Shown here piece after piece: positions 11,658-29,337 of a stretch of DNA of 64,000 nucleotides; position 1 is the stretch's first letter, and every line of letters starts with the position of its first letter. The notes below the pieces were generated by a model. It did no database searches. It worked only from the letters and a program-made list of their open reading frames with translations, and had not been told where the DNA came from. The position numbers and the translations under genes are program-made. This DNA comes from Patescibacteria group bacterium (GTDB lineage: Bacteria > Patescibacteriota > Minisyncoccia > Phycocordibacterales > SBAW01), in NCBI GenBank assembly GCA_040389385.1, contig JAZKAA010000003.1:39295-103294 (forward strand). The letters are read 5' to 3'.

Positions 11658-13625
11658 TTAATTATTCGCATAATTTTTTACACATGTGCTTGCGGCCGCG
11701 TTCCATGGTTGACCATACGCGGTGCCTCCACATCCTGACGGGGAATTACATGTGCCCGTCCACGGCTGATATGGGTTGTTGGGGTTAGCATTCATCAGCG
11801 CTATGGCCACCTGCTGGTTGCACTGCACGTTATTTTGGGCGGCGGTTATATTTCCTCCAAAATCAGCCGCGGTGCACCCGGACGGAGCGTACTTGGTCCA
11901 ATTGCCTCGCGTAATTTGGAAAGCGCCGCACGCATTGGTATCACTACAGCCTACAGAGTTGCCGGACAGTTCAGTCACGGCTATACACGACATCACATTA
12001 GCTTGCGTTTGCGTCATTCCGAGTCCGGCAAGTGTACCAACATCGCAGTTGGTATTACCGGTCATACATTGAGCGTAACCTCTCGAGCCACCGCTGATCC
12101 CGCCGCCAGGAACCTCCTTCCAATTATCTTCGTTGTTGGGGTTGTTTGGATCAAAGGTGGTGCCGTTTTTTTGACACCAATATTCTTTACCGTCATTTGC
12201 ACATGCGTATCCCGCTCCGCAATTGCCGCAAATATCCCCGCCCACATAGCCTTGATTTTGTCCCGACGTGTATTGAGAGGTGTAGCCGCCCACTGCAACT
12301 CCCGGCTTGCTGGTATCCAAGCCGCCGTTTTGACCAAACACGGAGTTAAATAACTTGTCCAACGAGGTTGTGTTGCCGTTGGGGCCGAGGATTGTGCCGG
12401 CGCGCTGGGCCTTTGAGCAATCGAGCCGATTCCAACTCTGATACTGCTGCGGATTTAAAATAAATTTGAGCATAGTCTGGATAATGAGCCATGCGGAGAT
12501 AGCGATAAGAAAGCCCCAAAACGCAACGCGCAGAGCCGCCTTGGCGCGCTCAATATTGCTTAGGCTCGATGCGGAGGTAAAGTACAAAATGCCCGCCCAT
12601 GCAAACATCAATGCCGCAATGGGTATCGAAAATCCGATGACAAAGTTAATTATTTTTTGCCCGAGAGATGCAAAGTCGCATAGCTGACAATTGAGCCCTG
12701 TACACACTTGCGCGATGCCAGGGCCGGTGCTCCCGTTGGTTGTGGCCGGCGTAACGGTTGTCTGCTGGCCCGGGGTCACGGTGCCCGCGCCGGCCGAGCC
12801 CGGAGTGCCAACCGCGCCCGGGGCACCTACTGACCCGCCTGAGTCGACACCGCCCGGGTCGACAAAGCTCCCGTTGCTGGGGTTAAACGTGATGGGTACC
12901 GAGCACGTGCCCGTGCCGCCGGGGCCGGTAAAGGTGCCTGTATATGTCGTCTGCACATTTGAGGACAAGGAGGTCGGGGGCAATATCCCCTGCTGGCCGC
13001 TCGGGCCTACAGAGCCCAAGCCCGTGATGGTGCCGCCGGTCGCGTCGACACTCTGCCACTTGAGCGTGACGGTTTGGCCGGTGGTGTAAGTGCTTGGGGT
13101 GGCAAAAATTTGGCATGTCGGTTTTTGGACGCCGCTGTTTAGCGTCAGCTGCGCGCCAAATAGAGGCAAGGCGCCGTTGACCACTGCCGACGTGTTGATG
13201 GCGGTGATGTTTATGTCAAAAAACTGGCCCTGATTAGCCGTAAGGTTGCCCGCCACCGTCGCAAACACCACTACCGTGCGAGCCTCGCCTGAAGGGATAG
13301 AAAGCGACAGCGGCACGGTTGCGGTGCCTCCCGACAACGTCGCCGACCCTAGCGTATTGTTTTGAGTATCAACCGCAGTGAGCTTGGTAACAACGCTGTC
13401 GGGGGCTGAGCCCACACGCTGCACTGTAATGCTGCTGATAGTCGCGGCGCTGCTTGCAGTAAAGGTAACCGCCACCGCCGGCAAGTTGGCACCGGGCATA
13501 ACGGTAGCGTTGGGCGGCTGGCCGCCGTTAGGCGTACTGACGCTCACCAACGGCACCGTCTGTGCCATAGCAAGCATCGGGGCCAAATATGCAACGACCA
13601 ACACAAGGGCAAAGACCCGCTTCAT
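11658..13625 (-). CDS. large secreted mosaic protein: signal peptide + beta-rich repeat region + Cys-rich segment + embedded VirB2/TrbC-like two-TM 'pilin' module + C-terminal lysozyme-like (SLT/goose-type) domain
   Basis: 655 aa. Signal peptide MKRVFALVLVVAYLAPMLAMAQT. T/S/G-rich beta region. CTGLNCQLCDF followed by two hydrophobic helices (INFVIGFSIPIAALMFAWAGILYF ... VAFWGFLIAISAWLIIQTML) resembling the small paralogs at 26.1-27.5 kb. C-terminus has E-L-S ... GAFQI, reminiscent of SLT motifs ExS / GLMQ. Confidence 0.6.
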   Translation of the reverse strand: MKRVFALVLVVAYLAPMLAMAQTVPLVSVSTPNGGQPPNATVMPGANLPAVAVTFTASSAATISSITVQRVGSAPDSVVTKLTAVDTQNNTLGSATLSGGTATVPLSLSIPSGEARTVVVFATVAGNLTANQGQFFDINITAINTSAVVNGALPLFGAQLTLNSGVQKPTCQIFATPSTYTTGQTVTLKWQSVDATGGTITGLGSVGPSGQQGILPPTSLSSNVQTTYTGTFTGPGGTGTCSVPITFNPSNGSFVDPGGVDSGGSVGAPGAVGTPGSAGAGTVTPGQQTTVTPATTNGSTGPGIAQVCTGLNCQLCDFASLGQKIINFVIGFSIPIAALMFAWAGILYFTSASSLSNIERAKAALRVAFWGFLIAISAWLIIQTMLKFILNPQQYQSWNRLDCSKAQRAGTILGPNGNTTSLDKLFNSVFGQNGGLDTSKPGVAVGGYTSQYTSGQNQGYVGGDICGNCGAGYACANDGKEYWCQKNGTTFDPNNPNNEDNWKEVPGGGISGGSRGYAQCMTGNTNCDVGTLAGLGMTQTQANVMSCIAVTELSGNSVGCSDTNACGAFQITRGNWTKYAPSGCTAADFGGNITAAQNNVQCNQQVAIALMNANPNNPYQPWTGTCNSPSGCGGTAYGQPWNAAASTCVKNYANN

Positions 13626-20074: not shown

Positions 20075-21649
20075 ATGGCTAAAAAATCCAACACAGACCC
20101 TGCAACAGTGCCGGGGCCAAGCCAGCCCCCCATAGTCGCTGTCGTGGGCCATATCGACCACGGCAAGTCCACGCTGCTCGACTACATACGCAAGAGCAAT
20201 GTTGCCGAAGGCGAGGCGGGTGGCATCACGCAACACCTCTCCGCATATCAGGCGACGCACAAAAACGCCGCAGGCGAGCATGTGATCACTTTTTTGGACA
20301 CACCGGGACACGAGGCCTTTGCCGCGATGCGCTCGCGCGGCTTGCGCGTGGCCGATGTGGCAATACTTGTTGTCGCGGCCGACGACGGCGCAAAGCCGCA
20401 GACCAAAGAGGCGCTTAGTTTGATAGCAGAAGCCAAGATACCGTACATCGTTGCGTTTACAAAAATAGACAAGCCCGGCGCCAATATCGAGAAGGCAAAA
20501 ATGTCGATGCTTGAGGCGCAGGTGTTTTTGGAGGGACTCGGCGGTGATGTGCCGTGGGTGGGGGTATCGGGCAAGAGCGGCGAGGGCGTCCCCGAGCTGT
20601 TGGACTTGATATTGCTGCAGGCCGAGCTAGAGGGCCTGACATCAGACGCGCTCGCTCCCGGCTCGGGCCTCGTGATAGAGGCGCATGTCGACCAGCGCCG
20701 CGGCAACACCGCGACCATTATCGTGCAGGACGGCACGATTAATAGCGGCGAGTTTGTCGTCTCCGGCGAGGCGCTCGCGCCGGTGCGTATTATGGAAAAC
20801 TTTTTGGGCAAGCCTATTAAGGAGGCCCCGCCCGGTAGCCCCGTGCGCATTGTGGGCTGGAGTGTCTTGCCCGCGGTAGGCGCGAGCGTCAAAACAGTCG
20901 AAACAAAAAAAGAGGCGGAGATAGACGTGGCAGAGGCGCGCCTGCAACGTCCTGTCCAACATGGTCTGGTTGAGGCGAAGACGACCCGAGGACCTGTTGG
21001 CAGCGGTGTTGCAGGCGCGCCCGAAGAGCCTGTAGAGATGGCTGTGTTCCCTCTCATTATCAAAACAGACGTCGCGGGCACGGGCGAGGCGGTGATGCAC
21101 GAGCTGGCCAAACTGCCGACACATGACAACTTGGAGGTGCGCTTTGTTAATCGCGCCGTGGGCACCATCAACGAGGCGGATGTTAAGACCCTTGCAGGCG
21201 GCAGCGCGCCGGGCGTTATCGTCGGCTTTAACGTCAAGGTCGAGCGCGAGGCAAAAGACCTCGCCGAGCGCCAAGGCGTCACTATCGAGACCTTTGACAT
21301 TATTTATAAGCTTGCCGAGTGGCTTGGTGCACGTATAGAAGAGCGCCGTCCGCGCACAAAAGTGGAAATGGTTGTCGGCGCCGCCAAGGTGCTCAAGTTT
21401 TTCTCTGCAACAAAAGGCCGCGTGATTTTGGGCGGCCGCGTTGAGGAGGGTGTACTCAAAGACGGCGCGGAGGTAAAGATACTGCGGCGCGATATAGAGA
21501 TTGGCCGCGGCAAAATCACCTCACTCCAGTCGAGCAAAAAGGATGTCAAAGAGGTCGAGATCGGAAGCGAGTTTGGCGCACAGGTTAAGACAGAGGCGCT
21601 GCCCGCCGCAGGCGACCGGATAGAGGCGTACTTGGTCGAGCAAAAATAG
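20075..21649 (+). CDS. infB: translation initiation factor IF-2 (compact form lacking the long N-terminal region)
   Basis: 524 aa; G-domain VVGHIDHGKSTLLD, DTPGHEAF, TKIDK; C-terminal beta-barrels. Confidence 0.92.
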   Translation: MAKKSNTDPATVPGPSQPPIVAVVGHIDHGKSTLLDYIRKSNVAEGEAGGITQHLSAYQATHKNAAGEHVITFLDTPGHEAFAAMRSRGLRVADVAILVVAADDGAKPQTKEALSLIAEAKIPYIVAFTKIDKPGANIEKAKMSMLEAQVFLEGLGGDVPWVGVSGKSGEGVPELLDLILLQAELEGLTSDALAPGSGLVIEAHVDQRRGNTATIIVQDGTINSGEFVVSGEALAPVRIMENFLGKPIKEAPPGSPVRIVGWSVLPAVGASVKTVETKKEAEIDVAEARLQRPVQHGLVEAKTTRGPVGSGVAGAPEEPVEMAVFPLIIKTDVAGTGEAVMHELAKLPTHDNLEVRFVNRAVGTINEADVKTLAGGSAPGVIVGFNVKVEREAKDLAERQGVTIETFDIIYKLAEWLGARIEERRPRTKVEMVVGAAKVLKFFSATKGRVILGGRVEEGVLKDGAEVKILRRDIEIGRGKITSLQSSKKDVKEVEIGSEFGAQVKTEALPAAGDRIEAYLVEQK

Positions 21650-21674
21650 TTCGACATGACTCACCACAAGTAAC

Positions 21675-21983
21675 ATGCACGAGCGCGACACAGAAACACT
21701 CCGCACGACCGCAGCCGAGTTTTTGGCTAGGGAGGCCGGCCGTGAGTCGCTTATAACCGTCACCCGCGCCGAGATGGGCGAAGACCGCAAGCACGGTGTC
21801 ATCTACATAACGGTATATCCCGACAGCGCCGAGGTGGGTGCTCTCAATTTTTGCAACCGCAACCGCGGCGAGTTTGGCAAATTTTTTGAAAAGCGCGTGC
21901 GCGGCATGAGGCTGCCGCACGTAGAGTTTGTCATAGACGAGGGCGAGAAGTACCGCCGCCGGTTAGACGAGCTCGGAAAATAA
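21675..21983 (+). CDS. rbfA: ribosome-binding factor A
   Basis: 102 aa, immediately after infB; ESLITVTRAEMGEDRKHGVIYITV matches the RbfA KH-like core. Confidence 0.75.
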   Translation: MHERDTETLRTTAAEFLAREAGRESLITVTRAEMGEDRKHGVIYITVYPDSAEVGALNFCNRNRGEFGKFFEKRVRGMRLPHVEFVIDEGEKYRRRLDELGK

Positions 21984-22085
21984 GGATAAAGTAAGGGCTC
22001 TGGCCACGTGGCGAAGAAGCAACGCGGCGGTCTGCAAAACCGCTATGCGAGGGTGCGAATCCCTCCGTGGCCTCACGTTTAAAAT

Positions 22086-22175
22086 GCCGGGGTGATGGAA
22101 TTGGTAGACATACGGGACTTAAAATCCCGAGAGGAATTAAACACCCTCATGAGAGTTCGAGTCTCTCCCCCGGTA
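22086..22175 (+). tRNA. tRNA-Leu (anticodon TAA), type II, no encoded CCA
   Basis: GCCGGGGTGATGGAATTGGTAGAC..., anticodon loop CTTAAAA, T-arm GAGAG-TTCGAGT-CTCTC. Confidence 0.8.
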
Positions 22176-22177
22176 CT

Positions 22178-23047
22178 ATGTATCCCTACGGCCCATGGAT
22201 CGAGCAGTTGCCGAGCGGCTATGTGCCCCGCCAACAATGGCCCGAGTATGACATTACGACCACGCTGCTCCCCAGAGCTCACCCCCGCTACGTGGGCTCA
22301 GGCACGCGTTGGGGTATGTGGCCCCTCTATTTTGAAGAGTATGTACAACAAGCCGAGCCTGTACTGTCTCCCCAACGCAAAGACCCTGCACGCATAGTTA
22401 TATGGCAACGCGTCGTCCCTCTCGGTAGATGTATCGGTTGGACGCAATTTTCTTTTAAGCCTGCAAAGCTTGAGGGATTTTCCATGCTCGAGCCAGGAAT
22501 GCCGTACGAAAAAACGTGGTCCGAATCGGCACGGCGGTATCTCAAAAAATGGCGCACGCAGTATGCAGGCACGCAGTATGTCATAGAGCCCATCACATAC
22601 GAGGAATTTGCAGAGACATACAAGGACGGTACCGTATATAAACACGCACAGGAGTATCAATTGAGGGTCGTTAAGGCTCTCCTCGGTTCTCCCAAAAGCC
22701 GGCAACACACAACACTGTGGGGAGCGCGGCGTCTTGATATAGGCAAGATAGATGCGACGCTTGTTGTAGTGTCTTCTCCCTCTACCCACTCTTCGTATTA
22801 TCAAGCGGCGTGTATCCGCCGGAATATCGCCGACGCCCCTCTTATGATTGGGCTTATGGACCATTGGCACGCCTACGCAGTTACAAACGGAATCAAGTTT
22901 CTGCACTTTGGCGGATTTTGGAAACCCGGCGACCCAAAGCAATGGAAAGGGTTTTCTCTATTTAAGTCCAAATTTAATCCTCAGTACATCGCCTATCCCC
23001 CGGCGCTATTCCGTTTCGCTAAAGGCACTATACTGAGACGTACATGA
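22178..23047 (+). CDS. FemAB/CelD-like GNAT-fold acyl/aminoacyl-transferase family protein (start adjusted past tRNA-Leu to MYPYGPW)
   Basis: C-terminal QWKGFSLFKSKFNPQYIAYPPALFRF resembles the FemAB/Acetyltransf_6 signature (...FK.KFG...); paralogous to the C-terminal half of the next gene (TRWGMWPLYFEEY vs TRWCLWPLCFELY). Confidence 0.55.
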   Translation: MYPYGPWIEQLPSGYVPRQQWPEYDITTTLLPRAHPRYVGSGTRWGMWPLYFEEYVQQAEPVLSPQRKDPARIVIWQRVVPLGRCIGWTQFSFKPAKLEGFSMLEPGMPYEKTWSESARRYLKKWRTQYAGTQYVIEPITYEEFAETYKDGTVYKHAQEYQLRVVKALLGSPKSRQHTTLWGARRLDIGKIDATLVVVSSPSTHSSYYQAACIRRNIADAPLMIGLMDHWHAYAVTNGIKFLHFGGFWKPGDPKQWKGFSLFKSKFNPQYIAYPPALFRFAKGTILRRT

Positions 23048-24483
23048 GTTGGCTGACCCGAAAAGACGTTGTCCCCTCGCCAAAAAACGGCGAAATAATT
23101 ACCCGCCGAAGAGGTAGAGCTCAAGAAGTGTTTGTAAAAGGCTGCGGCCAGACCACCGACTATACCAACGCCATGTGGACAGGGGCGTTTGAGCGCCTTG
23201 CTGTTCGTCCGGTACGCCCCGCAGTACTTATGCTAGGCCTTGGCGGTGGCGGCGGTGTCTCCCTTCTGTACGAATATTTTCCCGGCTGCACCATTACAGC
23301 GGTGGAGTACGATCCGGTAATGATAAAACTGGCGCGGGAAGCTCTTACACAACAGGCTGTCACCCTTCCAACGATAATGGAGATGGATGCCGCATTAGTA
23401 TTTAGCCACATTGCAGAAAAGTTTGACGTCATTATTGTGGACCTCTTTGACGGACCGGAACCGTCCTTACTGTCTAAAGATACGACATACCTCCGGGCGC
23501 TGCAGGCACACCTAAACCCTTCTGGTGTCGTACTACTCAATGTATACAAAAATAAAGAATACCTAGAAGCGGCTTCAGGGATCTTTGGATGGTCTGACGT
23601 ATGGACCTACAAAGAGAATCATCTCGGCGCTTTCCGCACTACTGCTGTTGGGTTTACTCCGCCCGATGCATGGAAGGAGTACGGCATGGTCGCTCTACCC
23701 GCGCCCTTATGTCGTCGCGAAAATGTTGAGGGAGGTACGCGGTGGTGTCTATGGCCGCTGTGCTTTGAGCTCTACACAAGCGATACCGAGCCCAACATTG
23801 CGTCCAACGCGCATGGCGCGCTTGCCTACAATCGCATTGTGCTGTGGAAACGGGTTGCCCGCACGGACGTGCCTGCCGGATGGCATGCACCTATGCGGCC
23901 GCGACCGTGGCGCACAGACGGTTTTTTTGAATTACAATCCGGCGTCGATTACACCGAGCTATGGCATAAGAAAGCTCGTCATGATGTGCGTAGGTGGCGC
24001 GAGGACGCCGCCGCAGGGAAATACCGTGTCGAACCGTTGTCATTTGGGCAGTTTGCCGAATCGTATAAAAAAAGTACGGCATACAAAAAAGCCGGGTCTC
24101 ATTTACTCGAGATATTTGAACGCAAGTGGGCGCTGCCGGAGACGCGCGCACAACTCGTGTTGTGGGGCGTACGCGATGTTGTAGCAAACAAAATAATTGC
24201 AGGGATGGCTGTACATTATCCGCCGAGCCAGAGTGCCTCTGTGCGTGAGTGCCCCTTTATGCTCAAAGAGGCCACGTCATCGCATGCAATGACCGGAGTT
24301 ATGGATTATTGGTTTGCCGAGTCACAGCGACGCGGAGTTATGTATCAGGTGTTTACCTATTTTTGGCAACGCGGAGACTCTCGGCAGTGGAAAGGGTTCT
24401 CCGTCTTTAAGTCGCACTTTGTGCAGCAGTATGTCGTGTACCCTCCCCTCTTGTGGCGGTTTGTCCGCGACAAATTTTGGTAA
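23044..24483 (+). CDS. fusion protein: N-terminal spermidine-synthase-like (class I SAM-dependent MTase / aminopropyltransferase fold) domain + C-terminal FemAB/CelD-like domain
   Basis: N-domain VLMLGLGGGGGVSLLYEYF...AVEYDPVMIKLAREAL...DVIIVDLFDGPEP (SpeE-like GGGDGG and DVIIvD motifs). C-domain ends QWKGFSVFKSHFVQQYVVYPPLLWRF, paralogous to 22178-23047; 4-nt overlap with the upstream gene. Confidence 0.55.
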   Translation: MSWLTRKDVVPSPKNGEIITRRRGRAQEVFVKGCGQTTDYTNAMWTGAFERLAVRPVRPAVLMLGLGGGGGVSLLYEYFPGCTITAVEYDPVMIKLAREALTQQAVTLPTIMEMDAALVFSHIAEKFDVIIVDLFDGPEPSLLSKDTTYLRALQAHLNPSGVVLLNVYKNKEYLEAASGIFGWSDVWTYKENHLGAFRTTAVGFTPPDAWKEYGMVALPAPLCRRENVEGGTRWCLWPLCFELYTSDTEPNIASNAHGALAYNRIVLWKRVARTDVPAGWHAPMRPRPWRTDGFFELQSGVDYTELWHKKARHDVRRWREDAAAGKYRVEPLSFGQFAESYKKSTAYKKAGSHLLEIFERKWALPETRAQLVLWGVRDVVANKIIAGMAVHYPPSQSASVRECPFMLKEATSSHAMTGVMDYWFAESQRRGVMYQVFTYFWQRGDSRQWKGFSVFKSHFVQQYVVYPPLLWRFVRDKFW

Positions 24484-24515
24484 GAAGAGAGAAAGTGTGG
24501 TAAAAAAGAAGTCAC

Positions 24516-24588
24516 GCGCCCATAGCTCAGTTGGTAGAGCAACTCCCTCTTAAGGAGATGGTCGTAGGTTCGAATCCTACTGGGCGCA
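24516..24588 (+). tRNA. tRNA-Lys (anticodon CTT), no encoded CCA
   Basis: GCGCCCATAGCTCAGTTGGTAGAGC, anticodon loop CTCTTAA, T-arm GTAGG-TTCGAAT-CCTAC. Confidence 0.85.
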
Positions 24589-24776
24589 CAAAGCAGCTTC
24601 ACGCGATTTTAAGGTGCAACAGGATACAACTGGCGCTTAAAGCGTCGCATTTGTTTTATATATTTAATTACACATTTGTATGCCCTCTCACTCACGCATA
24701 CTTGTATGGCCCACCGTACTTCTTGCCGGTGCGGTCATCTTCTTGTCCTCGGCGATAGCCGTCTTTGCTTAACGGG

Positions 24777-24858
24777 TGCTGGAGAGAGGACTTGAACCTC
24801 CATCCCTTGCGGGACCTGCTCCTAAGGCAGGCGCGTATACCAATTCCGCCACTCCAGC
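24777..24858 (-). tRNA. tRNA-Leu (anticodon TAG), type II, no encoded CCA
   Basis: Revcomp GCGCTGGAGTGGCGGAATTGGTATACGCG CCTGC-CTTAGGA-GCAGG ... GGAGG-TTCAAGT-CCTCT CTCCAGCA. Confidence 0.8.
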
Positions 24859-24887
24859 GCTATAGCACGGGGCTATTTTAGCACGCT

Positions 24888-24916
24888 TGACAATATTGTA
24901 CAATATGATATAATAC
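24888..24916 (+). promoter_or_regulatory. near-consensus sigma70-type promoter TTGACA-N16-TATAAT with a palindrome (TATTGTACAATA) in the spacer
   Basis: Read directly: TTGACAatattgtacaatatgaTATAAT ~50 nt upstream of the 24967 gene. Confidence 0.5.
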
Positions 24917-24966
24917 CCCCTAGGACACCCGTCCTTCTCATTCAACTCAAACCGAAGGGGGCCAAA

Positions 24967-25401
24967 ATGACTCAACTGCCAAGGACGGTAAAGAAGACAG
25001 ACCGCCATACGGCGCGCTGGGCGACGCTGTTGCTCATCGTGTTTATGTTGGGGGTTCAGTACGCACCCGAGTCAATTCTGCTCTTGATAAGAATCAAAGA
25101 GTGGTTGCCGGACGTGCTTCTTCTTTACATGACGATCGAAATCTACGAGACATCACAACAAAGCTGGACCAAAATCACGGAATTCTTCTGGGACAACGGC
25201 TTGTCCTTCGCCGGCATGATCGTCGGCATCGTGATATTTGTCCTGCTGTTTGCCCGCCCGGGATATACGCTCAGCTACGAGCATATCCTGATCGAGCGTT
25301 GGTGCACACTCGCGTGCGCGTTCGACTTCTTTCTCGGTCTCGCAATCGTGTTCAGAATCACGTCTGCAGCCCGGGAGCGTGAAGAATTTCCCGCCCATTA
25401 A
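24967..25401 (+). CDS. hypothetical membrane protein (144 aa)
   Basis: Three or four hydrophobic helices; no motif recognised. Confidence 0.45.
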   Translation: MTQLPRTVKKTDRHTARWATLLLIVFMLGVQYAPESILLLIRIKEWLPDVLLLYMTIEIYETSQQSWTKITEFFWDNGLSFAGMIVGIVIFVLLFARPGYTLSYEHILIERWCTLACAFDFFLGLAIVFRITSAAREREEFPAH

Positions 25402-26014: not shown

Positions 26015-26097
26015 ACGAAAGTAGCGCGCCGCTTTATTTCCCGACGCTCTGGTCGGGACCCCGACCGCTTTCGCGCGTCGGGGTTTATTTTTTTAAT
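26015..26097. terminator. triple-hairpin bidirectional terminator region; its last two hairpins (26040-26097) form a repeat shared with 58726-58770
   Basis: GGCGCGCTAC-gaaa-GTAGCGCGCC, then CCCGAC-gctctg-GTCGGG, then CCCCGAC-cgctttcgcgc-GTCGGGG followed by TTTATTTTTTT. Confidence 0.6.
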
Positions 26098-26344
26098 GCA
26101 GCGAATTGACCGTATTTTGTATCAGCGTCAGTATCCCAAACGACGCGACCATAATAAACATGCCCACCACGCCCCATAGCATGTGCTGCTTGCCGGTGTT
26201 GCTCTCTTTGCCGCCCACGTTGGCTGCCCACAAAAATTGCACTAACCCCCAGATAAACACCACAAGCGCGATCCCAAAAATAAGCAGTATCGCGGGGTTG
26301 ATAAGCACTCTCGTCACGTTGTTGACGAGTGTCGTAACGTCCAT
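26093..26344 (-). CDS. small two-TM protein, VirB2/TrbC-like pilin-family paralog 1 (83 aa)
   Basis: Pattern hydrophobic helix-FIWGLVQFLW-Gly/Lys loop-MLWGVVGMFIMVASFGILTLIQNT; array of four similar genes. Confidence 0.55.
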   Translation of the reverse strand: MDVTTLVNNVTRVLINPAILLIFGIALVVFIWGLVQFLWAANVGGKESNTGKQHMLWGVVGMFIMVASFGILTLIQNTVNSLH

Positions 26345-26353
26345 ACAGTTAGC

Positions 26354-26632
26354 TTAGCGTTGTGGGACCTGCGGGATAGCCACCGGCGCCACCGAGACGC
26401 CGAGCGTGTTTTGCATCAAGCGGATGATACCCCAGACCGAGACCATCACAAAGAGTGCCAAAAGGCCTGCGATCATGATATGTCTACCGCTTGCGGCATC
26501 TTTGCCTGCACCTTTAACGTACTTAAAGAGACCCCAGAAAAAGATAATGACTGTAAGCGCAATGACTACCGGGATAAGCCGGTTGAGTGTGTCCCCTACA
26601 AAAGCAATGAGCTGCGGGATGTTGGATAGCAT
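26354..26632 (-). CDS. small two-TM protein, VirB2/TrbC-like paralog 2 (92 aa)
   Basis: IIFFWGLFKYVKGAGKDAASGRHIMIAGLLALFVMVSVWGIIRLMQNT. Confidence 0.55.
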   Translation of the reverse strand: MLSNIPQLIAFVGDTLNRLIPVVIALTVIIFFWGLFKYVKGAGKDAASGRHIMIAGLLALFVMVSVWGIIRLMQNTLGVSVAPVAIPQVPQR

Positions 26633-26700
26633 AAAAATCTATAAATGGTTATGTTAGTAAGTGTAGCATCCTCTAAACGGGCAAGGCCGGGCTCTGTGGA

Positions 26701-27033
26701 TTACGGCTGCCACTGTCCATAAGAGCTCGGACTGGTAAAGTTGGACGCCGTACCCGCATTTGGGGTCCCGCAATTTGACGCGAGCAAAGAGTCGCAGGCT
26801 ATACGCAGTATCCCCCAGATAGAAAAGAGGATAAACAGCGCCACGAGGCTCCAGACCATTGTTTTCCGGCGGCTTCCTGCACTTTTGCCTCCGGACGATT
26901 GGTATACATACTGAAACGCCCCCCACATAAACAAGAGCACCGCGGCTGCAGCCAGCACCCCCACCAGCTGATTGAGTATCCCCACAAGGTAGGCAATGAC
27001 CGAGGCAAACGTGGCAGTGGATGAGGTGACCAT
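26701..27033 (-). CDS. small two-TM protein, VirB2/TrbC-like paralog 3 (110 aa)
   Basis: LLFMWGAFQYVYQSSGGKSAGSRRKTMVWSLVALFILFSIWGILRIA. Confidence 0.55.
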   Translation of the reverse strand: MVTSSTATFASVIAYLVGILNQLVGVLAAAAVLLFMWGAFQYVYQSSGGKSAGSRRKTMVWSLVALFILFSIWGILRIACDSLLASNCGTPNAGTASNFTSPSSYGQWQP

Positions 27034-27453
27034 TTAGTTGCAGGTGAGAATATTGGCGCCGCCTATGGCGTTGATGGTGCCGGCTATAATCATCGCCAAG
27101 ACCCATGCGCCCACAAACAGCGCTATGCCTATAACGGTGTAATAAAAGTTGCGGCGCGCCGCCTGTAAGTCTTTTGGCTTGCCTTGCGCCAGGACAAACC
27201 TAAAGCCCGACCAAATAATAAACAGTACCGCCACAGGGATCCCGACAGCGACAGCGCCCTCGAGGATCTTTTTGAGCAGGCCGCAGACGCTGGTTACCTG
27301 GAGCGGATTGTTGACCGAGTAGGAGCCGTTAGAGGGTGTCGGTTGAGGTGTATCAAATGTAGCGGCTCCCGCCAACAGCGGCGCAGAAATCAAAAACATA
27401 ACAACAAGCCCGATAATAAACCGCTGCCTATATAAAGCTAAAGCCATATGCAA
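27034..27453 (-). CDS. small signal-peptide + two-TM protein, VirB2/TrbC-like paralog 4 (139 aa)
   Basis: Signal peptide; VLFIIWSGFRFVLAQGKPKDLQAARRNFYYTVIGIALFVGAWVLAMIIAG; directly abuts paralog 3 (no gap). Confidence 0.55.
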   Translation of the reverse strand: MHMALALYRQRFIIGLVVMFLISAPLLAGAATFDTPQPTPSNGSYSVNNPLQVTSVCGLLKKILEGAVAVGIPVAVLFIIWSGFRFVLAQGKPKDLQAARRNFYYTVIGIALFVGAWVLAMIIAGTINAIGGANILTCN

Positions 27454-27455
27454 AA

Positions 27456-28760
27456 TTACTGTCCGCGGTTGGGCAAAAGCGCGTTAAATCCTTGTGCCGC
27501 CTCGCTCACCGCGCCCGCCGGGTCGTTGGCGCCCGATAGCACCGATTGTATCATGGAGGCAAACAGCTGGTCGGTCGTTACGGGGTCCGGGTCTACCCAG
27601 CCGTGCGCAAGCAAAGCTGATTGTAAAAACACGCTCGCCGCCGCGTTGGCGGAGGTGTCCGCCGCCACGTCACGCCGCCCGGAGGGCAAGCCGGTGGTAG
27701 TCATCCATGTCGTTGCGGCCGCAGGCGAGGTGAGCTTTTGCGCCACGGCGAGCGCTCCGTTGGGATTTTTAGCACTGCGCGGTATAGCAAGCCCGCTCAG
27801 TCTGCCAAACGTGCTCTGGCTGCTCGACCCCTTAAGCTGCGGCAGTACCGCCACACCCACCGAGAGGTTGGGGTTGCGTGCCAAGAGCGCGCGGTACTCG
27901 CTCGCAAACCCAAAGTATGTGGCCAAGTTGCCCGCGGCAAAGGCGTCTGTGGAGTTGGGCAGAGCCCTGTTCCAAGAGTAGGTGGCCTTGGTCGGATTGG
28001 CAAACTCGGTGTAAAAGCGCAATGCCGCGGCGGCCGGCGCCTCTGTCGCACCGTTGGGGACCGACCCAAAGGTCGATACAAGCGCGCCGCTCGCCGTGCG
28101 CCCCGTCAGCAACTCCCCCGCCTGGATAAACAGTGCCGAGAGTATCGCCTTGGCGTCCGTAATGTTGCCCCAGGTGCCAAGTGCTACGGCGCTGCGCGTA
28201 ACACCCTGCGAGCTGTCGAGTTTGCGCAGGATTGGCGATATGTTGAGCAGGTCGCTCCAGTATTGCGGCGGCGAGGCTTGGCCTGCGCTCACGTACAAAT
28301 CGCGGTTCCAGTACATCACCAGCGGGTCGACATCAAACGGCAACGCAAGCACCCCTTGCGGCGTCAAAAACAGCCGCCCCTCGTCTATATAATTGGCAAG
28401 AAACGTCGCCTGCGACACCGCGGCGTACGGCACGAGCGCCACCTTGTCGCCAAACTGGCCGATGTCCTCTTGCGACACGACAAACAGGTCGGGCGCGGTG
28501 CCGGCGGCCATGGCGTTGAGCAGGTCGGCGCTGTAGGTGGTCGCGCTTTTTTCTATATATGTGGTGTCACTGAGCGAGCTGTCGCTTTGCCGCAGACTAT
28601 CGAGCAGGTACTGCATCGTGGCCTGGTCCTCGGTGCCCCAGATAGTTACCGCGCCGACGCTTTGTCCGCCAAAGGCACCGCCAAATATCGCAAAAATGGC
28701 AACCCCCGCGATGAGGAAAAAGGCAAACAACCCTATGACAACCATTTGGAATCCCGACAT
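27456..28760 (-). CDS. extracellular solute-binding protein (ABC-transporter SBP family 1-like), N-terminally membrane-anchored; no permease or ATPase adjacent
   Basis: 434 aa; N-terminal TM then DLFVVSQEDIGQFGDKVALVPY..., typical of sugar-type SBPs. Confidence 0.65.
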   Translation of the reverse strand: MSGFQMVVIGLFAFFLIAGVAIFAIFGGAFGGQSVGAVTIWGTEDQATMQYLLDSLRQSDSSLSDTTYIEKSATTYSADLLNAMAAGTAPDLFVVSQEDIGQFGDKVALVPYAAVSQATFLANYIDEGRLFLTPQGVLALPFDVDPLVMYWNRDLYVSAGQASPPQYWSDLLNISPILRKLDSSQGVTRSAVALGTWGNITDAKAILSALFIQAGELLTGRTASGALVSTFGSVPNGATEAPAAAALRFYTEFANPTKATYSWNRALPNSTDAFAAGNLATYFGFASEYRALLARNPNLSVGVAVLPQLKGSSSQSTFGRLSGLAIPRSAKNPNGALAVAQKLTSPAAATTWMTTTGLPSGRRDVAADTSANAAASVFLQSALLAHGWVDPDPVTTDQLFASMIQSVLSGANDPAGAVSEAAQGFNALLPNRGQ

Positions 28761-28761
28761 G

Positions 28762-29337
28762 CTAGTGTTTGGTGCCCTGACTCTTCTTCTTTAGTATACA
28801 GCCCCAATGATAGGCGCCTGCGGGTAATGCATCTCCCGCCACAAAACCGTTTTGCTCAAAAACTTCGCGCGCTTGGTCTTGGGTAACCACGTGGTCCTCG
28901 CGGGGCCCGAGGCCACCAAACGTGCCCGCCCAGTCTACAAGTGCAACCTTGCCGCCCGGCTTAAGCACCCGGGCGGCCTCTCCCGCCACACAGCCCTTGC
29001 ACTCCATCGCAAAGAGCGTGTTGCAGATAAACACCATATCAAAATAGTTTTCCGGTAGGTGTGTGCCGCCCAGATGCGAGACATCGCCCTGCATCACCTC
29101 GATATTTTTGAGCCCTTCGCCTTGCGCGACATTTTTTATCCGCGGCAGCAGGTCGCGATTTTGGTCCACAGCCCACACCACACCGCCGGGGCCTACCGCG
29201 CGGCCCAACGCGCGCGCGACAAAGCCCGAGCCGGCGCCAAAGTCGGCGACCTTCATCCCCTCATGCACCATCGCGGCGTGCACAAGCTTGGCAGGATTTA
29301 AAAAAGAGCTTTCAGCCATGCACTCATTGTAACGCAA
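28762..29337 (-). CDS. class I SAM-dependent methyltransferase
   Basis: Motif I VADFGAGSGFVA, post-I acidic residue, LKPGGKVALVDW. Confidence 0.75.
   Translation of the reverse strand: MRYNECMAESSFLNPAKLVHAAMVHEGMKVADFGAGSGFVARALGRAVGPGGVVWAVDQNRDLLPRIKNVAQGEGLKNIEVMQGDVSHLGGTHLPENYFDMVFICNTLFAMECKGCVAGEAARVLKPGGKVALVDWAGTFGGLGPREDHVVTQDQAREVFEQNGFVAGDALPAGAYHWGCILKKKSQGTKH

Follow-up and report, generated by a model that had tools for sequence, protein, structure and literature searches.

A Patescibacteria family of Fem-like double-GNAT proteins with a spermidine-synthase-fold partner module

What do two overlapping genes, framed by transfer RNA (tRNA) genes in an uncultured ultra-small bacterium, do with the transferase-like domain that they share? 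The genes, here called A and B, lie in a 64-kb stretch of DNA (the window hereafter) from a metagenome-assembled genome of the Patescibacteria (candidate phyla radiation, CPR). An initial annotation had described them as adjacent paralogs resembling FemAB and Acetyltransf_6 proteins, the second of which carries an additional spermidine-synthase-like domain, and had proposed from this fusion an aminopropyltransferase or polyamine chemistry. The present analysis confirms the observation and supports its interpretation in part, as the Fem-like and spermidine-synthase-like folds hold and the aminopropyl chemistry does not. We propose, with about even confidence, that A and B are Patescibacteria-specific, previously unnamed Fem-type (double-GNAT) aminoacyl-tRNA-dependent transferases with a spermidine-synthase-fold methyltransferase partner.

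The shared Fem-like domain

The two genes overlap by 4 nucleotides (nt) in an ATGA. Residues 203-475 of the gene B product align with the gene A product at 35% identity across 273 amino acids (aa) (BLASTP, E 1e-57), and thus the paralogy is real and far beyond chance. All the motifs initially quoted for the paralogous domain were located, namely TRWGMWPLYFEEY in A and TRWCLWPLCFELY in B, as well as its C-terminal signatures, QWKGFSLFKSKF in A and QWKGFSVFKSHF in B. The product of gene A (P0001) is 100% identical to the NCBI entry 'hypothetical protein V4474_00880 [Patescibacteria group bacterium]', and that of gene B is identical to P0065, a 'methyltransferase domain-containing protein' from a Patescibacteria group bacterium. 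A longer open reading frame (ORF) beginning at GTG 22067 was considered for gene A and rejected as the true start, because it traverses the tRNA-Cys and tRNA-Leu(UAA) genes detected by ARAGORN.

Direct scans of gene A gave zero matches in Pfam or NCBIfam, and neither Pfam FemAB (PF02388) nor Acetyltransf_6 (PF13480) directly matched A or the C-terminal domain of B, so the Fem/GNAT resemblance could be confirmed only through family members and structure. Against PDB sequences, gene A alone and a 55-sequence family profile both returned chance matches only (Lpg2149, E 0.2) and no Fem protein. When the 55 family members were scanned singly, PF13480 gave weak matches in 19 of them (best E 2.1e-5), covering residues ~123-262, which correspond to GNAT domain 2. 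P0061 (26.0 bits) and P0054 (25.1 bits) passed the PF13480 gathering threshold (22 bits) among these individually scanned members, and ATE_C matched 2 of the 55 weakly. These weak matches lend some support to the Acetyltransf_6 likeness proposed initially.

The AlphaFold2 model of gene A (mean predicted local distance difference test, pLDDT, 95.3; predicted template modelling score, pTM, 0.91) contains two tandem GNAT-like domains, the Fem fold. In Foldseek, its top 26 matches were all of one kind, and the C-terminal domain of B had the same outcome. The gene A model matched Staphylococcus aureus FemX (6snr, score 19.1, 250 residues aligned), FemA (1lrz, 18.4), the aminoacyl-tRNA-dependent peptide synthase Sbb17 (9wqx, 18.1), Weissella FemX (4ii9, 17.6), a Bacteroides protein of unknown function (2hqy, 15.6) and the MprF synthase domains (6lv0, 4v36 and others, 12.9-14.2). 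The predicted structure is decisive for the Fem-type assignment where sequence profiles say little.

Conserved residues point in the same direction. P61, W88, F262 and K263 do not vary in any of 202 near-complete domains taken from the entire family, and W76, W114, S260, G251, G258, W230 and W256 are nearly invariant. The F262-K263 pair, found in 202/202 domains, is located on the last helix, 26 residues before the C-terminus of gene A, and is conserved in gene B as Phe455-Lys456. A role for Phe304 in the FemX of Weissella viridescens (FemX_Wv) was reportedly described by Fonvielle et al. in 2013. For a catalytic Lys there are precedents in Lys305 of FemX_Wv and in Phe328-Lys329 of DhpH-C (review PMC12945691), of which Phe262-Lys263, a putative catalytic pair, may be the counterpart. 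The 2009 FemX paper in Nucleic Acids Research (NAR) mentions neither Lys305 nor Phe304. Also, the coenzyme A (CoA) pyrophosphate-binding motif Q/RxxGxG/A does not occur in the beta4-alpha3 loop, whose sequence is PxMxGLMDxW. The N-terminal half of the shared domain is a reduced GNAT remnant, mostly beta, with several acidic and Trp positions and with motifs peculiar to the family (QWPEY, WPxxFExYxSDxEP, NRxxxWxR...GW).

With the FemABX proteins (S. aureus FemX 6SNR and FemA 1LRZ; W. viridescens FemX 4II9) the family has in common a C-terminal helix with an invariant Lys after Phe and the absence of the CoA-binding motif, and the tandem A/B paralogs are reminiscent of the femAB operon. However, identity between the two groups is only 9-13%, Pfam FemAB does not match the new family, and FemABX proteins have 335-420 aa against the 289 aa of gene A, whose first GNAT half is the reduced one. 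The new family also differs by the absence of the coiled-coil arm, by acceptor-side features of its own (QWPEY, WPxxFExYxSDxEP and several invariant Trp), and by its fusion or pairing with a methyltransferase, with no genomic mur/dcw link. Sbb17 and Sba18 (Orf11-type, streptothricin-type antibiotics; 9WQX, 9WQY), with 12-14% identity to the new family, belong to actinomycete antibiotic clusters and act on an amino-sugar antibiotic intermediate, whereas the new family has no biosynthetic cluster and is housekeeping-like and, in Patescibacteria, syntenic.

The N-terminal module of gene B

The motifs quoted for the additional domain of gene B, LGLGGGGGV...VEYDP...DVIIVDLFDGPEP, were also located. 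In the N-terminal ~200 aa, Pfam detects Spermine_synth (PF01564) with 26.5 bits, above its cut-off of 22.9, together with Methyltransf_25 (26.8 bits) and generic methyltransferase families. In the model of gene B (pLDDT 93.3), this domain aligns to spermidine synthase (SpdS) structures over 196-198 aa, N-terminal beta domain included, whereas ordinary class-I methyltransferases align over ~150-170 residues only. The shorter class-I alignments indicate that the full SpdS architecture is present, and the spermidine-synthase likeness claimed initially is thus borne out along the whole domain.

A profile built from 22 modules matches Escherichia coli SpeE with 50.8 bits, with GxxQTT, ExD, D[AG] and FDxIIxD in common. 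The SpeE/SpdS proteins (6QMM, 1UIR, 2E5W; probable SpdS 3GJY) are among the known systems closest to the module. The GGGDG of SpeE corresponds to GLGgGG in the family, where G67, G69 and G70 are Gly in 20-21/22 modules and the Asp position is Gly/Ala in 21/22. In aminopropyltransferases, this Asp contacts the aminopropyl amine of decarboxylated S-adenosylmethionine (SAM), as reportedly described by Korolev (2002) and Wu (2007), and excludes SAM. The SpeE/SpdS proteins are also longer (280-310 aa, versus ~200 aa for the module, which has no C-terminal domain), and the YHE tyrosine motif of SpeE is unaligned in the profile alignment with the family. The cofactor-binding or catalytic residues E88, D115 and D133 are invariant or nearly so. 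Human SpdS uses D173 for catalysis and D176 for diamine binding (PMC6109062); D133, equivalent to D173, is invariant among the 22 modules, whereas position 136, equivalent to D176, is Asp in the window protein and D/S/N/I/F/R/K/T/H across the family, i.e., the second putrescine-binding Asp is not conserved. The NCBIfam aminopropyltransferase equivalogs TIGR00417, PRK00811 and PRK04457 reach 20.9-42.6 bits, against cut-offs of 250-304 bits; the cut-offs of the NCBIfam aminopropyltransferase equivalogs overall range from 250 to 470, for scores of 21-43 bits.

The top PDB sequence match of the module is the C-domain of METTL13 (MT13-C, 5wcj; phmmer), with VVGLGGG..FP..I.AVE.DP.M..A and FD motifs in common. 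This domain, a distant relative of SpdS, methylates protein N-termini with SAM. Its activity requires Glu524 and Asp575, the latter being the counterpart of SpdS D173 (PMC6109062). The counterparts of Glu524 and Asp575, E88 and D133, are invariant in the module. Beyond GLGGG...FP...AVExDPxM, the two share the Post-I Glu, the Asp after beta-3 and the Post-II Asp. They differ in that the METTL13 C-domain comes from a eukaryotic protein, where its fusion partner is a lysine methyltransferase domain, whereas the B module is fused to a Fem-like domain, in that the position of METTL13 Asp577 is an invariant Phe (F135) in the module family, and in that the module family retains the SpdS-type N-terminal beta domain with GxxQTT. 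We conclude that the module has the SpdS fold and acts on an amine. Methyl transfer is its more probable activity and aminopropyl transfer the less probable one, because the GGGDG Asp is missing and the GLGGG motif is of the METTL13 type. When SpeE catalytic Asp residues are weighed in this way against methyltransferase residues, the N-terminal domain would make gene B simply a methyltransferase fusion, an outcome that the initial annotation had named as counting against its proposal.

Residues 60-176 of B (window 23221-23571) also match PADLOC 'mad2' of MADS (40.7 bits) and NCBIfam 'fused MFS/spermidine synthase' (32 bits). A defence-system role was rejected, as the mad2 match spans the methyltransferase core only, further MADS genes are lacking and PHROGs returned no match. 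The two matches suggest that a GLGGG-type SpdS-like core may recur in unrelated fusions. In tblastn searches of the window, which is only part of the genome, neither E. coli SpeD, a distant query, nor a CPR MetK query found a match.

A Patescibacteria family in two kinds of locus

When 1.84 billion representatives of 50% identity clusters were searched exhaustively with a profile, 340 family proteins were detected at E up to 1e-3, of which 305 remained at E up to 1e-10. The family thus forms a compact group that stands well apart from other GNATs. It is seen almost exclusively in Patescibacteria, where 53 species-level genomes carry it under the labels Adler-, Kaiser-, Nomura- and Uhrbacteria, Paceibacterota and 'Patescibacteria group'. 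The members found have no informative database name, and literature searches returned no relevant publication on Fem-like enzymes in Patescibacteria/Parcubacteria; the fusion is therefore uncharacterised, as had been supposed. Some assemblies labelled 'Saccharibacteria' or 'Gammaproteobacteria' have an Uhrbacteria-like gene context, and since this context matches Uhrbacteria loci, these off-lineage labels are probably wrong. The labels 'uncultured Gammaproteobacteria' or 'Kapaibacterium' are borne by the carriers L034, L036, L038, L039, L041, L045, L050, L051, L054, L055; L049, several of which have the UvrD-fusion-MetK-PPIase context of Uhrbacteria loci.

The search for homologous fusions that had been suggested was productive. 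Among 213 family proteins, 154 stand alone, 55 are methyltransferase-Fem (MT-Fem) fusions and 4 are Fem-MT fusions. Because the fusions occur in both orders, there is strong Rosetta-stone evidence for a joint role of the two modules in a single process. In a census of 51 non-redundant loci with a 6-kb radius, a methyltransferase was adjacent or fused in 25 and located elsewhere within 6 kb in 3, its status being undetermined in 6 loci at a contig edge. Clustering separates three types: the A-type of window gene A, the B-type of window gene B, which is the sole copy in several genomes, and an Uhrbacteria-type clade, which is mostly fused. Two copies occur together only in the window, L001 and L023.

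Table 1. Features of the window discussed in the text, with positions counted from its first letter.
Feature	Positions	Strand	Description
655-aa ORF	11658-13625	-	no Pfam match at E up to 1e-3
infB	20075-21649	+	Pfam GTP_EFTU/IF-2; upstream gene of the probable transcription unit
rbfA	21675-21983	+	Pfam RBFA; upstream gene of the probable transcription unit
tRNA-Cys(GCA)	22002-22074	+	ARAGORN; conserved flank in Paceibacteria-type loci
tRNA-Leu(UAA)	22086-22176	+	ARAGORN; 3' end 1 nt before the gene A start codon
Gene A	22178-23047	+	ATG to TGA, 289 aa; stand-alone Fem-like double-GNAT transferase, A-type subfamily
Gene B	23044-24483	+	ATG to TAA, 479 aa
Gene B, N-terminal module	23044-23640	+	residues 1 to ~199; spermidine-synthase-fold, METTL13-C-like putative SAM-dependent N-methyltransferase
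Gene B, C-terminal module	23641-24483	+	residues ~200-479; Fem-like double-GNAT transferase, B-type subfamily
tRNA-Lys(CUU)	24516-24589	+	ARAGORN; conserved downstream flank
Terminator-like hairpin, then T-rich tract	24631-24647	+	consensus scan only, weak; possible end of the transcription unit
tRNA-Leu(UAG)	24775-24858	-	ARAGORN; fourth conserved flank, inverted versus most relatives
Sigma-70 consensus	24887-24914	+	perfect TTGACA-16-TATAAT with upstream TG
Unannotated ORF	24967-25401		preceded by the sigma-70 consensus
Pilin gene cluster	26093-29337	-	the four genes below
Pilin gene	26093-26344	-	small, TrbC/VirB2-like 'T4SS_pilin'
Pilin gene	27034-27453	-	small, TrbC/VirB2-like 'T4SS_pilin'
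Solute-binding protein gene	27456-28760	-	same cluster
Methyltransferase gene	28762-29337	-	same cluster; UbiE/PCMT-like

The window belongs to the Paceibacteria-type loci (Table 1), in which Aminotran_5, DUF4446, infB, rbfA, tRNA-Cys(GCA) and tRNA-Leu(UAA) precede the cassette and tRNA-Lys(CUU), tRNA-Leu(UAG) and TrbC-like pilin genes follow it. Between the tRNAs, the cassette consists of A, B-type, A+MT, A+MT+B, A+B or MT+Fem, and this site between tRNA genes looks like a conserved slot with changing content. In L021 (5094-7550), the four flanking tRNA genes are the same and the MT-Fem cassette between them has the opposite orientation. A syntenic counterpart of the window's T4SS_pilin cluster follows the cassette in L001, L002 and L004.

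The junction between tRNA-Leu(UAA) and the Fem-like gene is very tight. The first ATG lies -1 to +12 nt from the tRNA 3' end in 16/22 loci, a tRNA-abutting ATG being found, besides the window (1 nt), in L001, L004, L006, L009, L014, L018, L019, L023, L053 and others, and in some loci the A of the encoded CCA is the A of the ATG. The messenger RNA (mRNA) of gene A would be leaderless after tRNA 3' processing, an arrangement like the 'tRNA punctuation' of mitochondria. A consensus scan found no sigma-70-type promoter between rbfA and gene A; the sole match on the + strand in 21500-25100 is the perfect consensus located 400 nt downstream of B. Genes A and B thus appear to have no promoter of their own, and the lack of a promoter between rbfA and gene A, together with the hairpin after tRNA-Lys, suggests co-transcription with infB-rbfA and the tRNAs.

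In Uhrbacteria-type genomes, the flanking tRNAs are absent. The fusion is found in a co-directional run of HhH-GPD, PAP2, YceG, UvrD, the fusion itself, a MetK-domain gene, cyclophilin, Peptidase_C39_2, GerM, PGA_cap and exonuclease VII. The Cys/Leu(UAA)/Lys/Leu(UAG) frame is thus conserved only in Paceibacteria-type loci, and the idea that the whole family is functionally tied to these tRNA genes was rejected. The gene with SAM synthetase (MetK) domains adjoins the fusion, and its cluster is present in 8 Uhrbacteria-type loci. This gene is short (~294-330 aa; e.g., L035 6775-7656) and encodes the N-terminal and central domains of SAM synthetase. It was found in L033, L034, L035, L044, L045, L048 and L050, and as a neighbour fits a SAM-derived cofactor for the module. 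A direct peptidoglycan linkage, for which dcw/mur neighbours were expected in the Uhrbacteria-type loci, was rejected, as Pfam shows otherwise.

Proposed function and its alternatives

From the fold, the conserved residues, the fusions and the synteny, a tRNA donor, the use of SAM, co-transcription and an acceptor can be predicted as follows. The Fem-like module would transfer an amino acid from a charged tRNA to a primary amine on the acceptor, forming an amide bond, with the invariant Phe-Lys (F262-K263 in A, F455-K456 in B) in the role of Lys305 of Weissella FemX or Phe328-Lys329 of DhpH-C. The A-type and B-type paralogs may act successively, like FemX/FemA/FemB, or may use different donor tRNAs. 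The N-terminal module of B would most likely bind SAM rather than decarboxylated SAM and add a methyl group to an amine, either on that acceptor or on the residue just transferred, the methyltransferase being a frequent and optional tailoring partner. The gene pair would share a transcript with infB-rbfA and the flanking tRNAs, from which tRNA processing would free the message of gene A. Our leading guess for the acceptor is a cell-envelope precursor, with the free amine of a peptidoglycan stem peptide as candidate.

Several observations weigh against this proposal. At E up to 1, Pfam FemAB (PF02388) never matched A, B or any of the 55 family members, solved Fem proteins show only 9-14% sequence identity, and K263 was equated with FemX Lys305 by position and not by residue-level superposition. 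The conserved acceptor-side motif is acidic (E53, D58, E60), and a cationic acceptor would thus fit better than an anionic UDP-MurNAc-peptide or lipid II. Mur/dcw genes are not linked in either Paceibacteria-type or Uhrbacteria-type loci, and we know of no described N-methylation of peptidoglycan bridges. In 17/51 loci, there is no methyltransferase within 6 kb, which makes this partner frequent but dispensable. The preference for SAM over decarboxylated SAM would follow from one missing Asp and the similarity to METTL13, and the pTM of the gene B model (0.72) leaves the orientation of its two domains uncertain.

The reduced acceptor-side domain, with its acidic motif, would also suit a small-molecule or lipid head-group acceptor (cf. 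Sbb17/Orf11, PacB, VlmA, MprF), the product being an aminoacylated amino sugar, nucleotide or phospholipid that is then N-methylated. The Sbb17-like size of the protein is in line with this, and the adjacent MetK and the envelope-related PAP2, YceG and PGA_cap of Uhrbacteria-type loci are compatible with it. Nevertheless, secondary metabolism is generally sparse in Patescibacteria, the genes do not lie within a biosynthetic cluster and an MprF-like membrane domain is missing, so that we consider such an acceptor unlikely. A protein acceptor seems to us quite unlikely: the amino acid would be added to the N-terminus or a Lys of a ribosomal protein, translation factor or pilin, as by L/F-transferase/ATE1, and the METTL13-like module would methylate the new alpha-amine. 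This agrees with the activity of the METTL13 C-domain, the closest characterised sequence relative, with the weak ATE_C matches and with the location in an infB-rbfA-tRNA unit in Paceibacteria. However, similarity to L/F-transferase and ATE1 is far below that to Fem, Sbb17 and MprF, Uhrbacteria-type loci have no translation context, and no candidate substrate gene is conserved beside the cassette in both lineages.

The polyamine chemistry put forward initially requires the N-terminal module to be a true aminopropyltransferase using decarboxylated SAM, with the Fem-like modules aminoacylating a polyamine or attaching a polyamine-type amine, and would yield a modified polyamine or a polyamine-decorated envelope. 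It draws support from the SpdS fold with its N-terminal beta domain, the retained GxxQTT and catalytic Asp (D133 = human D173), a Spermine_synth score just over threshold, the retention of D136 in the window protein, and an acidic acceptor-side motif that suits a polycationic acceptor. It is weakened by the replacement of the GGGDG Asp, the variable D176-equivalent position, the unaligned YHE motif, the distant NCBIfam equivalogs, the METTL13 C-domain as top PDB sequence match and, weakly, by the lack of a SpeD match in the 64-kb window, and we now judge it quite improbable. Covalent modification of peptidoglycan by a polyamine or diamine may be envisaged as well, with no mur/dcw linkage to speak in its favour. 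The least likely reading, to which we give very little credence, is that of an ordinary tandem GNAT acyltransferase, in which the shared domain would depend on acyl-CoA and make no use of tRNA. The weak Pfam matches are indeed to an 'Acetyltransferase (GNAT) domain' (PF13480), and the tandem CoA-dependent MAB_4324, MshD and clavulanate ORF14 are among the fold matches, but the Q/RxxGxG/A motif is missing at the beta4-alpha3 loop and the invariant Phe-Lys pair agrees with tRNA-dependent enzymes.

The proposal of Fem-type transferases with a methyltransferase partner can be extended, at the price of becoming rather doubtful, to a lineage-specific, tRNA-coupled pathway. In such a pathway, the Fem-like enzymes would build an aminoacyl or dipeptidyl branch, possibly with the flanking Leu/Lys tRNAs, and the SpdS-derived N-methyltransferase would cap it, on a target not known to carry such a modification, be it a new type of peptidoglycan bridge with N-methyl groups, a protein, or a lipid or polyamine acquired from the host, the enzymes being expressed from a leaderless mRNA driven by the tRNA operon.

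Use of aminoacyl-tRNA outside the ribosome has been described in a handful of groups, namely Fem/MurM, MprF, L/F-transferase, ATE1 and a few antibiotic pathways. If the proposed function is true, a compact, well-separated and CPR-confined family would be added to these users, and the association of a Fem-like transferase with a spermidine-synthase-fold methyltransferase would constitute a new domain partnership. Database annotations of the partner module, such as 'spermidine synthase' and 'precorrin-6B methylase', would be corrected as well. A and B have high-confidence models, are small and apparently soluble (no membrane domain was seen), which makes the prediction testable in vitro. To our knowledge, the envelope chemistry and the host-dependent physiology of CPR bacteria are almost unknown experimentally, and the identity of the acceptor would reveal a CPR-specific modification of the cell surface or of a metabolite.

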